A stretch of 32,000 nucleotides of DNA from Moraxella nasovis (lineage in GTDB: Bacteria > Pseudomonadota > Gammaproteobacteria > Pseudomonadales > Moraxellaceae). Below, piece by piece: positions 2,518-30,758 of the stretch. How positions within the stretch are numbered: the stretch's first letter is position 1; each line of letters begins with the position of its first letter. Location: positions 810,001-842,000 of the forward strand of contig NZ_CP089976.1 in assembly GCF_022701215.1 (NCBI RefSeq), in the 5' to 3' direction. The notes below the pieces were generated by a model, which saw only the letters and a list, made by a program, of their open reading frames with translations, did not search any database and was not told where the DNA came from. The position numbers and the translations under genes were made by a program.

Positions 2518-4267
2518 CTTTTTTATTGATGATAAGTGCTAGAATAAACATCATCATGCCTGACAACAACAACGTGATAAATTTTAATAAAAAAGGTATG
2601 GCAAGCGAATAATATAACTGCCACAATAAAAACATTAATAAAAATACCGATAATACAGTAATTGCTTTATCTTTTTGATAAATGCCATACGCCAAAATCA
2701 ATAACATCACACCGATATTGATATAGCCAAGCACCATCAGCATGATTGTTAAACCTAAAAATAACGCTATTGTCGTCAGATGATGTTTTGATGTATCTAG
2801 CTGATATAATTGATAAAATACGATCAATAAAATCGGCAATACCACATAATCCATATTGGCATGAAAATTAAGCAATCCAATCTCATCAAAACTGCTTACC
2901 GCCGCAAGCACAGCCAATACACCTATCATGGTAATTGCCAATGGTTTTTTTAAATACTCAATCCTGCGTTGATATAATGCAACCATCGGTAATGTACCAA
3001 CAACCATGAGCAGTGCTTGGCTGATTGGCGTATCATCAAATATCTGCATGATGTCATAACTTATCATGCCATACCACGCAAGCATTTGTAATGCTAGATA
3101 CAACCAATGCACCCGAAGATAAATCAGCACACCAAGCAATACTGTCTGTAAGGGTAGCTGTATCCAAAAATTATTTAACCCAAAGTATTTATCCACCCCA
3201 ATATAAGACGCCACTTGACCCATCGCAAATAACGCATAACCTAAATGACGCAAATAAGTATGATGATAATATTGTTTTAAAATGGCGATACCGACAATGA
3301 TAAACAACAGCCCTGTGATAAGTGGCAAGTTATCAATATCAAACAACATAAACAATGAGATAAACCAAGCAGAAAACCAGCCGCCAATCCCAAAGGCAAT
3401 CGCATGATAGTTGGCATTTGGAAATAGGCATAAAATCAAATAACCCATCGCCCCAAACCACAACATCGCCATAAAACCAATGGCAAAAAGCTTATCAGTA
3501 AAGACGTGAACGCACAGCCCCACAAATAACGCTGTCCCAAAACCAATCAAAGATAGACTACTAATCCACGCATTAGCACATCGTTTGGCATACCACCACA
3601 TTATCACAAGTGCCAAAAAACCCGTGAAATTTATGTAACTTATTGACTGATGAAAGTTAATACTAACCGCACCAATGCTTGCAATGACTGCACACTCTAA
3701 CACAAATAACCAAAGTAGCGAGCGATACCACCAACTGGCAACAAAAAACTGTGCCAACGTAAGCAGTGCAAGAGCAGTTATCAGCACGCCAAAATCCATA
3801 TTTTGGCTTGTCAGCATAAGCCAAAACGCCACTTGTGAGACCACAGCCATCAGCACAAAAATGCCGATATTTTGCCGATAACACCACGGCAGCAGTAAAA
3901 CTGTCCAAATCATAAACAACCAAAAACTATCCGCCCCACTTTGATACACTTGTCCGATGACCGCAAGCGATAAACCTATCATCGCTCCGCTTATTGTCTC
4001 AAAGGTATTTTTAAGTAGCTTTACTGTGCTGATTTTTGTCGTATCATCTTTTGGCGACACCATCAACGACAATAGAGCAAACAGCACCATCAATATCATT
4101 GGCAAAGCAAGTTTGATGGCATTTGGCATCATAAACCAATTTGCCCCCACCAAATATAACAGCGACACCGCCACAAGCGACAAGCCAATCGCCATCAGAT
4201 AGCGAATAAATTTGGGGTGCGTGAGCGGATAAGGATTGGCAGATGGATAAGGTTGATTTGCGTGCAT
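2498..4267 (-). CDS. Polytopic inner-membrane protein, DUF4401/DUF2157-like
   Basis: 589 aa, almost entirely hydrophobic helices. Its position directly upstream of a GDYXXLXY gene is the usual partner arrangement for these DUF families. Confidence 0.65.
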   Translation of the reverse strand: MHANQPYPSANPYPLTHPKFIRYLMAIGLSLVAVSLLYLVGANWFMMPNAIKLALPMILMVLFALLSLMVSPKDDTTKISTVKLLKNTFETISGAMIGLSLAVIGQVYQSGADSFWLFMIWTVLLLPWCYRQNIGIFVLMAVVSQVAFWLMLTSQNMDFGVLITALALLTLAQFFVASWWYRSLLWLFVLECAVIASIGAVSINFHQSISYINFTGFLALVIMWWYAKRCANAWISSLSLIGFGTALFVGLCVHVFTDKLFAIGFMAMLWFGAMGYLILCLFPNANYHAIAFGIGGWFSAWFISLFMLFDIDNLPLITGLLFIIVGIAILKQYYHHTYLRHLGYALFAMGQVASYIGVDKYFGLNNFWIQLPLQTVLLGVLIYLRVHWLYLALQMLAWYGMISYDIMQIFDDTPISQALLMVVGTLPMVALYQRRIEYLKKPLAITMIGVLAVLAAVSSFDEIGLLNFHANMDYVVLPILLIVFYQLYQLDTSKHHLTTIALFLGLTIMLMVLGYINIGVMLLILAYGIYQKDKAITVLSVFLLMFLLWQLYYSLAIPFLLKFITLLLSGMMMFILALIINKKGDCHVA

Positions 4268-4425: not shown

Positions 4426-5415
4426 ATGCCAACCTTTGATCATCTTATTTTTATCGGACGCTTTGAGCCTTTTCATCACGGTCATGAATTTGTTGTGCGT
4501 GAAGCCTTAAAGCACACCGATCATGTCATCTTACTAATCGGCTCAGCAAACAGCCCACGCACCATCAAAAACCCATTTAACTTTGATGAACGCCAAGCGA
4601 TGATTTTAAAGGCATTTAGTGATGAAATCTCTCGTAAAATCACCTGCTTGCCCATTGATGACACCTTATATAATGACCATAAATGGCTACAAAACACTCG
4701 CCAAGCAGTTGCAAGCGTTACCCAAGCAGGTGATCGCATTGGCGTTATCGGACACCAAAAAGACGACAGCTCTTACTATCTTTCCTTATTTCCAGATTGG
4801 GAGTTTATCGCTTTGCCAAGCTTTGAAGGGCTATCTGCCACGCCTTTGCGTCAGCGTTATTTTGGTCAAGGCGTCATTGATGAACGTATGCCACAATCAT
4901 CGCAAGCATTTTTGGCAGATTTCATCAGCACGCCTGCCTACGCCAACTTACAAGCTGAATATCGTCACATCTTAGCCTACCAAAAAGCGTGGGAAGACGC
5001 CCCCTATCCACCTGTGTTTGTTACCGCTGATATGCTTGTGGTACAAAGTGGGCATATCTTATTAGTAGAGCGTGGCGGTGATTATGGACGTGGACTTTGG
5101 GCGATGGCAGGCGGATTTTTGGATAAAGATGAGACGCTACACGAATGCGGACTGCGTGAACTTGCAGAAGAAACCAGCTTACACCTTGATAAGAGTAGCT
5201 TTAAGCACTCGCACACTTTCGATGCACCTGATCGATCCGCTCGTGGGCGTACGGTGACGACAGTGTTTTATCATGAACTTCAAGGTAGTAGCTTGCCTGA
5301 CGTGGTGGGTGCAGATGACGCTACCCAAGCGTTTTGGCTACCCTTAAATAAGCTTGATGGCAAAAAAATGTTTGAAGACCATTATAGTATCATCACAAAA
5401 ATGCTCGGCATTTAG
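4426..5415 (+). CDS. nadM: Bifunctional NMN adenylyltransferase / Nudix (ADP-ribose) hydrolase NadM
   Basis: N-terminal nucleotidyltransferase motif GRFEPFHHGH. C-terminal Nudix box GGFLDKDETLHECGLRELAEETSL. 329 aa, typical of the NadM-Nudix fusions in Acinetobacter and Francisella. Confidence 0.85.
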   Translation: MPTFDHLIFIGRFEPFHHGHEFVVREALKHTDHVILLIGSANSPRTIKNPFNFDERQAMILKAFSDEISRKITCLPIDDTLYNDHKWLQNTRQAVASVTQAGDRIGVIGHQKDDSSYYLSLFPDWEFIALPSFEGLSATPLRQRYFGQGVIDERMPQSSQAFLADFISTPAYANLQAEYRHILAYQKAWEDAPYPPVFVTADMLVVQSGHILLVERGGDYGRGLWAMAGGFLDKDETLHECGLRELAEETSLHLDKSSFKHSHTFDAPDRSARGRTVTTVFYHELQGSSLPDVVGADDATQAFWLPLNKLDGKKMFEDHYSIITKMLGI

Positions 5416-28396: not shown

Positions 28397-28507
28397 AAAA
28401 AAATGAAAATAATGCTTGATTATCTAATTATAATTAGATATAATAAGCACATATACAGAGCAAAAGCTCGACAATCAACCCAAAGCTACAGGAGCTTACA
28501 AATGAAA
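28397..28507 (+). repeat. 111-bp direct repeat, copy A (promoter + operator + 5'UTR + RBS + first two codons)
   Basis: Letter-by-letter identical to 29281-29391: AAAAAAATGAAAATAATGCTTGATTATCTAATTATAATTAGATATAATAAGCACATATACAGAGCAAAAGCTCGACAATCAACCCAAAGCTACAGGAGCTTACAAATGAAA. Confidence 0.95.
28416..28444 (+). promoter_or_regulatory. Strong sigma70-type promoter A with an embedded 20-bp palindromic operator
   Basis: TTGATT (28416-28421), 17-nt spacer, perfect TATAAT (28439-28444). The palindrome TATCTAATT-AT-AATTAGATA (28421-28440) spans the whole spacer and touches both hexamers. Confidence 0.7.
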
Positions 28508-28786
28508 GTAGTACATATTGATAAATTCGGATTTGGTGATTTTTTTCATGACAACAAAATGAGCGGAGGTACTGCAAAAAACGGTACTCGATATGCAGAA
28601 GTTGTTGTTAATTCTGAAATTTACCACACTTTAAAAAACGGCTTGACAATCATCGGTACTCATAAAAAAAATGGTAGTACTAGAACGTATGAGTTTAACG
28701 GTGAACACGGCAGGGAATTTTACAACTATCACGCTCAGCTTGTTGTAAGATTTTATGGAAAAATGACAGACAAAAAATTAGCTTAA
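28502..28786 (+). CDS. Small hypothetical protein (94 aa), first gene of cassette A; anti-CRISPR/anti-defence candidate
   Basis: AGGAG (28490-28494) lies 7 nt before the ATG at 28502. The longer ORF-track version starts upstream of the -35 element and is unlikely. No family recognised. Confidence 0.65.
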   Translation: MKVVHIDKFGFGDFFHDNKMSGGTAKNGTRYAEVVVNSEIYHTLKNGLTIIGTHKKNGSTRTYEFNGEHGREFYNYHAQLVVRFYGKMTDKKLA

Positions 28787-28833: not shown

Positions 28834-29106
28834 ATGAACAATAACTATGTATTCAATCGTTTATTAACAACGCTCAATTTACACCGTAACCACGACATGA
28901 CCGCCAAAATTTTTAAGCTTGGTGGCACGCACTCTGAAATAACAAAGTCGCTAGTTAAGTCATGGCGTATCAGCGATGAACAAAACAGGCTGTATCGCCC
29001 CATGCTAGACAAGACACTAATATCGTTTTTTGACGGCTTACAACAAGCAAGCAAAGATGAGTTGATAGATATTAATTGCGATATTGTTATAAGAATAAAG
29101 GAGTAA
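28834..29106 (+). CDS. DUF1456 (YehS-like) single-domain protein, 90 aa
   Basis: The pattern N-x-[VI]-[FL]..L...L......DM...IFKLGG......I..W....E......P...L..FFDGL follows the repeat unit of E. coli YehS as I recall it. Confidence 0.55.
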   Translation: MNNNYVFNRLLTTLNLHRNHDMTAKIFKLGGTHSEITKSLVKSWRISDEQNRLYRPMLDKTLISFFDGLQQASKDELIDINCDIVIRIKE

Positions 29107-29111
29107 AAAAA

Positions 29112-29303
29112 ATGGCAAACACTACCAAAGCTCAAGCAAGAGCAGTTAAGCAATATCAACAGACTAGCGAAAGTTGGACTGTACGCACAAAAGACGAACA
29201 AAAGATGCAAATGCTTAAACAAGCAAAAGCAACGGGCAATTTGTCAAAAATATTTTTTGAATTTTTAGAAGAATATTTTAAAAAAAATGAAAATAATGCT
29301 TGA
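29112..29303 (+). CDS. Ribbon-helix-helix (CopG/Arc-like) DNA-binding protein, 63 aa; candidate repressor of the duplicated promoters
   Basis: AAGGAG (29098-29103) lies 8 nt before the ATG at 29112. Beta-strand-like SWTVRTKDEQ is followed by two helices (KMQMLKQAKATG, NLSKIFFEFLEEYF), the classic RHH layout. Confidence 0.6.
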   Translation: MANTTKAQARAVKQYQQTSESWTVRTKDEQKMQMLKQAKATGNLSKIFFEFLEEYFKKNENNA

Positions 29304-29391
29304 TTATCTAATTATAATTAGATATAATAAGCACATATACAGAGCAAAAGCTCGACAATCAACCCAAAGCTACAGGAGCTTACAAATGAAA
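29281..29391 (+). repeat. 111-bp direct repeat, copy B
   Basis: Identical to 28397-28507, offset 884 bp. Its first 23 nt also encode the C-terminus and stop codon of the RHH gene. Confidence 0.95.
29300..29328 (+). promoter_or_regulatory. Promoter B, identical to promoter A, with the same palindromic operator (29305-29324)
   Basis: Same sequence as promoter A. The TGA stop of the upstream RHH gene (29301-29303) lies inside the -35 hexamer. Confidence 0.7.
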
Positions 29392-29803: not shown

Positions 29804-29827
29804 AAAACCGCCCACGCTGGCGGTTTT
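29804..29827 (+). terminator. Intrinsic terminator after the cassette B gene
   Basis: AAAACCGCC-cacgct-GGCGGTTTT hairpin 50 nt after the stop codon. Confidence 0.6.
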
Positions 29828-29910
29828 CAAGACTAAAACAAGATTACGAATATCACTCAATGAACTATAAAATCTTGAACTAAAAGTAAAAGTATTTGAT
29901 GAAATTAAAC

Positions 29911-29939
29911 TTGACAAATCAAATTTATTTTAATAAGAT
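29911..29939 (+). promoter_or_regulatory. Promoter of the CRISPR-repeat-mimic RNA
   Basis: Perfect -35 TTGACA (29911-29916), 17-nt spacer, TAAGAT (29934-29939). The predicted transcription start is about 7-8 nt before the first repeat. Confidence 0.55.
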
Positions 29940-29953
29940 AGTTCATGTAGTTA

Positions 29954-30127
29954 TTACGCCACTGCAAAAAAGTGGCTTAGAAAGTTCTACAATTGTTAAA
30001 AGGGTTCACCACCGCTTAGGTGGCTTAGAAAATTGTATAATTTTAAAATATGTTTACCACCGCTTAGGTGGCTTAGAAAGTTATATGATTGTAAAAAAGG
30101 TTTACCACTGCAGAAGTGGCTTAGAAA
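29954..30127 (+). CRISPR. Orphan array of four type I-F-like CRISPR repeats (28 nt; first copy a degenerate 30 nt) separated by 20-nt mutually homologous linkers; candidate RNA anti-CRISPR or mini-array
   Basis: R1 29954-29983 TTACGCCACTGCAAAAAAGTGGCTTAGAAA. R2 30004-30031 GTTCACCACCGCTTAGGTGGCTTAGAAA. R3 30052-30079 GTTTACCACCGCTTAGGTGGCTTAGAAA. R4 30100-30127 GTTTACCACTGCAGAAGTGGCTTAGAAA. Same architecture as I-F repeats: GTTCA flank, 5-bp stem, 5-nt loop, CTTAGAAA handle. The stem covaries between copies. Confidence 0.6.
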
Positions 30128-30161
30128 ATTATATGATTGTAAATCAGTAATAACTACCAAT

Positions 30162-30184
30162 AAACCCCCAAACTTTGGGGGTTT
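30162..30184. terminator. Strong bidirectional terminator shared by the repeat RNA (+) and the endolysin gene (-)
   Basis: AAACCCCCAA-act-TTGGGGGTTT followed by ATTTTT. Lies 5 nt beyond the endolysin stop on the other strand. Confidence 0.8.
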
Positions 30185-30188
30185 ATTT

Positions 30189-30758
30189 TTACTTAAGCCC
30201 TACTAGATACGTTGTCCGACCGCCACGCTTAACAGCTGTTAGAAACTGACTTCGCTGGTCACCAGCATTTGACTTGTAGCCTAAATGTATCCATGTGCTA
30301 TTTTCGTCAGGGAATTCTAAAATAAGCTGGTCAAACTTTTTTAGCTTGTCTTTTAAAAAGTTAGCAATTTGTCGTGTTGTGCCAAATTCAGGACACTTAA
30401 AGTCAATTGCTCGCCCAAAAGTGTGTGCTGATGTATTAGACCCACCCACCGCACGATTGACATTGGGCGAACGATAACCGCTAGATATATGAATGGGTTT
30501 TCCAAGCAGGTCTCTGACAGGTTGCCACAGATTTACGCTACTATCTATCAAGTTTTGCAATACCCCAGCATCAGGGATATTATCAATGCCACGAGCTTTT
30601 GCGGTATTGCTGTGTAATAGCTCGTTTAAGCTGATGTTTTGCGTGATTTTAATCGTCTTGCCTACAGCTAAAGCGTGCTTTAATGCACGCTGTGACTGCA
30701 CCCCCCACACGCCGTCAGCAGGCGTGTTTATTTGTTCTTGAATGTGTTTGATGTTCAC
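30189..30758 (-). CDS. Phage endolysin, peptidase M15 family (zinc D-Ala-D-Ala carboxypeptidase-like, Peptidase_M15_3)
   Basis: SSGYRSPNVNRAVGGSNTSAHTFGRAIDF (H..D metal ligands) and the distal WIHLGY histidine. GTG start overlaps the upstream stop (GTGA). Confidence 0.8.
   Translation of the reverse strand: MNIKHIQEQINTPADGVWGVQSQRALKHALAVGKTIKITQNISLNELLHSNTAKARGIDNIPDAGVLQNLIDSSVNLWQPVRDLLGKPIHISSGYRSPNVNRAVGGSNTSAHTFGRAIDFKCPEFGTTRQIANFLKDKLKKFDQLILEFPDENSTWIHLGYKSNAGDQRSQFLTAVKRGGRTTYLVGLK

Follow-up and report, generated by a model that had tools for sequence, protein, structure and literature searches.

Repressors of the Arc/MetJ/CopG type, which have a ribbon-helix-helix (RHH) fold and include CopG and the Arc and Mnt proteins of phage P22, act on palindromic operators that overlap the promoter and regulate their own synthesis. 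The Moraxella anti-CRISPR (acr) loci are the source not only of AcrIF14 but also of AcrIF13 and AcrVA1-5, and in the Aca-focused literature that we examined no regulator has been reported for them. Autoregulation by Aca proteins is already an established principle, and an RHH precedent, Aca14, has just appeared. Aca14 (WP_005725436.1) is a 67-aa RHH protein from Pasteurella multocida that forms a dimer (Feussner et al., bioRxiv 10.64898/2026.07.27.740549, 27 July 2026). EMSA demonstrated its binding to a 20-bp inverted repeat, TGTATATG-TAAG-CATATACA, which overlaps the -10 hexamer, and reporter assays showed that it represses both its own operon and the adjacent downstream acrIF6 operon (bioRxiv 10.64898/2026.07.27.740549). 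The AF3 model of that study places a helical extension at the N terminus within the major groove (bioRxiv 10.64898/2026.07.27.740549).

We analyzed a 20-bp palindrome in a prophage island of Moraxella nasovis. Throughout, "the window" refers to the whole 32,000-nucleotide stretch of DNA that was analyzed, and designations of the form L299 refer to the other loci compared. The palindrome is best described, from comparative sequence data, as the putative operator of a new and probably RHH-like Aca family, whose member in the island (A3, 63 aa) would autoregulate its own cassette and the neighboring acrIF14 homolog.

The palindrome, TATCTAATTATAATTAGATA, occurs in two exact copies in the window (Table 1), and no third copy of the 20-mer was found there when up to three mismatches were allowed. 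Both copies are enclosed in a 111-nt direct repeat with 100% identity. They therefore share a single duplication, and the second copy is not an independent observation. Each repeat carries a promoter-like site, a 5'UTR, a Shine-Dalgarno sequence and an ATGAAA start. The promoter-like sites match the consensus at 10 out of 12 positions, and the palindrome occupies the 17-bp spacer, beginning at the last base of the -35 hexamer and finishing at the second base of the -10 hexamer. An exact scan of the window reproduced the positions of both copies as given in an earlier note on this DNA, all of whose coordinates are correct, together with the overlap with the two hexamers that it had described. 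Its description of the arms as nine bases on either side of a central AT is equivalent to a perfect palindrome with 10-bp arms. The note had also placed the stop codon of the 63-aa gene inside the -35 hexamer of promoter B, where the TGA indeed lies (29301-29303). It had called the promoter very strong; the close match to the consensus stands, and the strength is a reading of that match.

Table 1. Coordinates of the features discussed. Positions are those of the window unless another locus is named.
Feature	Position	Strand	Description or evidence
Promoter module A	28397..28507	+	Repeat copy 1: aca 3'-end remnant, -35, operator, -10, 5'UTR, RBS, ATGAAA
Promoter A	28416..28444	+	TTGATT 28416-28421, 17-bp spacer, TATAAT 28439-28444
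Candidate operator A	28421..28440	.	TATCTAAT-TATA-ATTAGATA, perfect 20-bp palindrome
A1, 94 aa, candidate anti-defence cargo	28502..28786	+	ORF
A2, 90 aa, DUF1456	28834..29106	+	Pfam PF07308, E 4.7e-7, above gathering score
A3, 63 aa, candidate Aca-type autorepressor	29112..29303	+	Family conservation, AF2 model, operator co-occurrence
Promoter module B	29281..29391	+	Repeat copy 2; overlaps the final 23 nt of A3
Promoter B	29300..29328	+	TTGATT 29300-29305, 17-bp spacer, TATAAT 29323-29328
Candidate operator B	29305..29324	.	Same sequence as operator A
B1, acrIF14 homolog, 122 aa	29386..29754	+	PDB 7ecv_I / 7du0_A, E 3.7e-28
Terminator-like hairpin	29804..29828	+	AAAACCGCC-cacgct-GGCGGTTTT, by sequence reading; closes the acr transcription unit
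DUF1456 cargo	window 28834-29106; L299 2913-3167; L301 1550-1807; L307 1695-1964		Recurs in A3-type operons

We assessed how often such palindromes arise in shuffled sequence. Perfect palindromes whose arms measure 9 bp or more occurred at 0.5 per dinucleotide-shuffled window and 0.06 per shuffled island, and 76 out of 200 shuffled windows (38%) contained at least one. In 100 shuffles, the exact 20-mer never arose. Taken alone, the palindrome in this window is only moderately improbable; its significance comes from its exact position in the promoter and from its conservation in other loci. Upstream of promoter A, positions 28397-28419 repeat the 3'-terminal 23 nt of A3 (…KKNENNA stop), detached from any gene. 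This remnant indicates that module A was copied from, or gene-converted with, the junction of A3 and promoter B.

The island comprises four plus-strand genes, A1, A2, A3 and B1, and sits between typA on the host side and a prophage endolysin. The upstream gene encodes, on the minus strand, a 614-aa GTPase that we take, by inspection, to resemble TypA/BipA. Downstream, the prophage end is marked by genes for an M15 endolysin and for a protein with a GA-like domain (Pfam, PHROG). The product of B1 aligns to AcrIF14 (7ecv_I / 7du0_A) over residues 1-121 of 122 and is a predicted AcrIF14. It is 40-43% identical to proteins of the Moraxella phages Mcat5 (43%), Mcat7 and Mcat8. Given this full-length homology, the island at the end of the Moraxella nasovis prophage is a genuine anti-CRISPR locus. 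B1 begins 83 bp downstream of A3, and reading of the sequence revealed no terminator between A3 and promoter B. The acrIF14 homolog therefore probably also receives read-through from promoter A. The hairpin downstream of B1 was seen by eye and was not reported by a consensus scan. A1 has no match in PDB, Pfam or PHROG, and aligns at 59% identity with the C-terminal portion of a 134-aa protein encoded in L299, a locus with an A3 homolog. A3 is identical to the Moraxella nasovis hypothetical protein LU293_04110.

Beyond the island, positions 29911-30190 of the plus strand contain a promoter-like sequence (TTGACA, 17 bp, TAAGAT) upstream of four 28-nt repeats, three of them complete and one degenerate. 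The repeats match Rfam CRISPR-DR4 with 34.9, 31.6 and 28.9 bits, where the gathering score is 35. They recur with a 48-nt period, so that the "spacers" are just 20 nt long, and these are similar to one another. The unit closes with a strong terminator (30159-30187), and no cas genes adjoin it. Next to the acr genes, the unit has the look of either a Racr-like RNA anti-CRISPR (a repeat decoy; PMC10651486) or a viral crRNA-like mini-array. CRISPR-repeat-like fragments, TTTCTAAGCAG[AG]CTGT[AG]CGCCTG, which resemble type I-F repeats by inspection, also adjoin the acr promoter in L258 (3030-3150) and in L033 (about 2440-2470). Moraxella acr islands may regularly be accompanied by repeat decoys.

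We searched for homologs of A3 and inspected the DNA around them. A word-indexed search recovered A3 alone. An exhaustive HMMER search yielded six homologs that seeded the family, and the resulting profile retrieved 42 members, including A3 and 41 further proteins (53-68% identity). The corresponding contigs were fetched by exact protein identity only, and no DNA information was used. The pattern T[AG]TCTAAT-N4-ATTAGA[TC][AT] was present in a promoter spacer in 11 of the 12 distinct classes of contig that encode A3 homologs. It lies upstream of the operon, immediately 3' of the homolog's stop codon, as is often the case, or at both positions. The site always begins at or beside the last base of the -35 hexamer, and its register with the two hexamers is constant across loci. 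Its TCTAAT/ATTAGA half-sites are invariant, whereas the -35 hexamer (TTGATT, TTGACT, TTGCTT, TTGCAT or TTGCGT) and the -10 hexamer (TATAAT, TATACT, TACAAT, TAGAAT or TACTAT) differ between loci, as do the leader and the central four bases. Conserved half-sites around a variable center are the signature of a dimer-binding site. The operatorless exception among the 12 classes is P0004 (L295), the most divergent homolog, which is encoded by a stand-alone gene in a different context. Exact scans for a 29-mer in genome contigs and for the 20-mer in viral contigs gave no match.

The A3 family is the sole gene common to the operator-bearing loci compared. Cargo genes differ from locus to locus, as do the phage backbones, with integrase neighbors in some cases and terminase neighbors in others. 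Proteins with DUF1456, such as A2, occur in four of these loci: the window, L299 and L301 (all three detected by BLAST) and L307 (a weak Pfam match). A2 was rejected as the operator-binding protein since it is missing from most operator-bearing loci. In L292, the gene behind the A3-type operator encodes a distant AcrIF23 homolog (7fia_A, E 4.8e-5). The A3 family is thus linked to both the AcrIF14 and the AcrIF23 families, as expected of an Aca marker. L258 carries a close variant of the operator, TATCTAACTATAGTTAGATA, ahead of an acrIF14 homolog, and no A3 homolog was found within the 6.3 kb examined. This plasmid-like contig also encodes three different small proteins that appear RHH-like by eye (2022-2213, 3346-3554 and 4851-5048). 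Each adjoins its own promoter, and one of these promoters bears the variant TATCTAACTATAGTTAGATA. In L305 / L306 (454-3109), a separate operon with a different spacer palindrome lies downstream of the A3 homolog. Its products are a 147-aa protein, a DEAD/SNF2-type helicase and an N6/N4 methyltransferase, a set that recalls the helicase/RM cargo reported for other Aca operons.

We compared the A3-family proteins with the central four bases of their operators. Seven distinct proteins with the sequence SESW[T/M]VRT pair with the centers TATA, CATG or CATA (window, L289, L291, L292, L296, L299, L301 and L305). Four distinct proteins with TEQWQVRT pair with ACGG, ACGT, ACTG or CCGT (L294, L302, L303, L307 and L308). 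There were zero exceptions to this correspondence between protein class and operator center among the loci compared. Where half-sites do change, they change symmetrically, at positions 2 and 19 in L299 and at positions 8 and 13 in L258. Together, the covariation and the symmetric changes are as direct read-out by a dimer would predict, with the invariant ESW.VRT segment near the center of the dyad. The replacement of SESWT by TEQWQ along with that of TATA by ACGG may be a natural change of specificity. We note that the co-occurrence and the covariation could be due in part to linkage, with operator and gene lying within about 100 bp of each other, and that the two protein/center classes may represent one evolutionary event. 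In L294, L302 and L308, a site upstream of the operon, split from the gene by variable cargo, still keeps the matching class of center.

The palindrome belongs to a wider set of Moraxellaceae promoters in which the scaffold is constant and the spacer changes. The flanks AAATAATGCTTG ... TATAATA..C.CAT are conserved in Mcat5, Mcat7, M. caviae, Moraxella sp. ZJ142 and many metagenomic and IMG/VR contigs. A loose version of the scaffold pattern gave, among the matches listed for genome contigs, mostly chance ones in Firmicutes MAGs. A tighter version worked; many of its matches in environmental phages are probably unrelated promoters. At least ten types of palindrome were seen on this scaffold, including TATGACTTTAAAAGTCATA; TTATATAAG-TTCC-CTTATATAA; TTATATA-N9-TATATAA; TTCCTAA-TT-TTAGGAA; TAACGTACGTTA; and TAGGCA-N5-TGCCTA. 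Several of them adjoin their own small regulator, either HTH Aca1-like or RHH-like. A 66-aa protein of the Mcat5 type always accompanies the TTATATA-type spacer, and in L124-type promoters the TAGGCA-N5-TGCCTA spacer accompanies an Aca1-like HTH protein on the same scaffold. As distinct palindromes accompany distinct regulators, the spacer behaves as an exchangeable specificity module. Cognate regulators were also sought for the other operator types, with partial success. For the Mcat7 spacer palindrome, no recognizable small regulator was found in the stretch examined. ZJ142 has just one RHH-like small gene, about 850 bp upstream of the promoter and not part of the one-gene operon that this promoter drives.

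Several of these promoters also share a leader element. A hairpin, ACACATCAAGAC...CTTGATG, lies at about +5 to +30 in L001, L002, L033, L289, L294, L299 and others, and is conserved across Moraxella acr promoters with different operators. This hairpin may function in the 5'UTR as an RNA element similar to those reported for Aca1 and Aca2. The leaders in the window carry a short hairpin, GAGCAAAAGCTC (28459-28470 and 29343-29354), unlike the hairpin of the other Moraxella acr promoters.

The A3 protein itself has no match in Pfam, PHROG, PDB or BFVD by profile searches and by Foldseek on PDB and BFVD, and none of 20 family members matched a Pfam RHH model at E values up to 10. Comparison of A3 with other small Moraxella proteins gave no significant similarity. 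Comparison with classical RHH proteins was also not significant, although this control is weak. E20, W22, V24, R25 and T26 are invariant in the family. An AF2 monomer model of only moderate confidence (pLDDT 69) places helices at residues 6-19, 29-41 and 44-62, with a G-N-L-S turn ahead of the last helix, and models residues 20-28, which include ESWTVRT, as coil and not as strand. This predicted layout fits a strand-helix-helix core with an extra helix in front, in which the strand would form only in the dimer. We regard an RHH fold for A3 as reasonably likely.

The earlier note had recognized acr/aca operon logic here and had attributed the palindrome to the 63-aa protein. The former agrees with the AcrIF14 homology of B1 and with the placement of the island between typA and the endolysin. 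The latter is supported by the presence of the site in 11 out of 12 contig classes, by the lack of any other shared gene and by the covariation of the operator center, and the comparative data make it highly probable, in our assessment, that proteins of the A3 family bind the palindrome and repress. The note had further called the protein RHH. The predicted secondary structure is compatible with that assignment; the Pfam, PDB and BFVD searches lend it no match. Its view that an RHH Aca would be atypical is superseded by the precedent of Aca14 (bioRxiv 10.64898/2026.07.27.740549).

We propose that the palindrome serves as the operator of an Aca-type negative-feedback circuit. Upon phage entry or in the lysogen, RNA polymerase would fire from two near-consensus promoters, with promoter A driving A1-A2-A3 and promoter B driving the acrIF14 homolog. 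As the 63-aa A3 builds up, we infer that it would dimerize, bind TATCTAAT-N4-ATTAGATA in both spacers and exclude RNA polymerase, and that it would thereby repress its own operon as well as the neighboring acr operon. RHH would be the likely mode of binding. We infer a fold in which the invariant ESWTVRT segment would form the two-stranded ribbon at or near the center of the dyad, and residue-base contacts in which the outer half-sites would be reached by a helix conserved at the N terminus (AQxxAVKxY).

We considered other explanations for the palindrome. It could be the operator of a different protein, namely A2 or a repressor of the prophage or host whose gene lies outside the island. A3 has no recognized DNA-binding domain, and some loci lack the expected partner: the part of L258 that was examined carries a near-identical operator but no A3 homolog, no small regulator is recognizable near the Mcat7 palindrome in the stretch examined, and the RHH-like gene of ZJ142 lies outside the operon driven by the promoter. 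However, A2-type proteins are found in only four operator-bearing loci, A3 is the only constant among differing phage backbones, and the operator center covaries with the A3 sequence, so that we consider this explanation improbable. There is a still smaller chance that the 111-nt repeat with its palindrome is mainly a recombination or cassette-exchange site for anti-defence cassettes, its position in the promoter being secondary. Exact repeats do flank a cassette, loci with the same promoter modules differ in their cargo, and copy A bears the 3'-end remnant of A3 without the gene. Yet the register of the palindrome against the -35 and -10 hexamers is invariant in every locus while the hexamers drift, and conserved half-sites with a variable center are what a dimer site would leave. 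Homologous recombination between modules requires no palindrome, and such a role is compatible with repression.

The palindrome could also act at the RNA level, as a hairpin between A3 and acrIF14 in read-through transcripts that directs processing, causes attenuation or is bound by a protein. The site is probably transcribed, as no terminator separates A3 from promoter B, and Aca1 and Aca2 are reported to bind 5'UTR RNA (bioRxiv 10.64898/2026.07.27.740549). Nevertheless, the predicted hairpin is weak (-4.3 kcal/mol for the 20-mer), has a single G-C pair and no U tract, and gains further G-C pairs only in the flanking stem of a longer fold. The site at promoter A is upstream of the transcription start, with no upstream plus-strand gene reading through it, and no conserved RNA motif was found for RHH Aca operons (bioRxiv 10.64898/2026.07.27.740549). 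We rejected an RNA hairpin or terminator as the main function on account of the low stability and the absence of a U tract, and consider an RNA-level element very unlikely. That the palindrome is a chance feature of AT-rich promoter DNA with no regulatory role might seem plausible from the shuffled windows and from the origin of the second copy by duplication, but the same half-sites in the same promoter register recur in 11 further contig classes with diverged flanks, and the exact 20-mer did not arise in any shuffle. The comparative data effectively refute this explanation, and its probability is negligible.

If A3 is a repressor, it would supply the missing regulator of the Moraxella acr loci. 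Its family would be the second non-HTH Aca family, unrelated in sequence to the first. Together with its operator, the family would provide a new guilt-by-association marker for anti-defence genes in Moraxellaceae, and A1, the DUF1456 protein and genes of L289, L292, L294 and L299 are candidate anti-defence cargo behind A3-type operators. The matched variants of protein and operator offer a natural set for the study or engineering of repressor specificity. If the switch between SESWT and TEQWQ is genuine, it could reveal a recognition code and orthogonal repressor/operator pairs. More broadly, the anti-defence promoters of Moraxellaceae would then be viewed as a constant scaffold that accepts interchangeable spacer operators.

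Among known systems, the Mcat5 acr locus shares with this island the duplicated promoter module, acrIF14 as the gene of promoter B and a gene for a small protein (66 aa) that ends just upstream of promoter B. Its two upstream genes are presumably AcrIF13-like and AcrVA2-like. It differs in the spacer, TTATATA-N9-TATATAA, and its 66-aa protein has no significant similarity to A3. With the HTH Aca systems (Aca1, Aca2 and others), the island shares the logic of a strong acr promoter, an inverted repeat within it as candidate operator and a gene for a small putative repressor at the operon end, whereas A3 has no HTH signature and is predicted to fold as helix, coil, helix, helix. A3 resembles the Arc/MetJ/CopG repressors in size, in the order of its predicted secondary-structure elements, in the G-x-x-S turn before the last helix, in its association with a palindrome that overlaps a promoter and in its putative autoregulation. 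It differs from them in having no profile or fold match and in carrying a conserved N-terminal helix beyond the minimal RHH fold.

The closest parallel is with Aca14. Both proteins are small (67 aa for Aca14 and 63 aa for A3) and are encoded by the last gene of an anti-defence operon. Both are associated with an AT-rich 20-bp inverted repeat with an 8+4+8 layout that overlaps the -10 hexamer, and with a second copy of the site at the promoter of the next operon downstream, which encodes an Acr. Both have an N-terminal helix ahead of the RHH core, which in A3 is predicted. In contrast, BLASTP with A3 gave no alignment to Aca14, and the hhalign probability was 0.4%. Aca14 matches Pfam RHH_1 (CopG) with an E value of 6.1e-5 whereas A3 has no match, and a homolog search starting from Aca14 returned Pasteurella proteins only. 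The half-sites also differ (TGTATATG compared with TATCTAAT), and the A3-type site spans the entire spacer and touches the -35 hexamer. Judged by these comparisons, A3 resembles Aca14 in logic but falls outside the Aca14 family. We put at about even the chances that A3 both founds a new RHH-like Aca family unrelated in sequence to Aca14 and represents one module of a Moraxellaceae promoter system with interchangeable operators.
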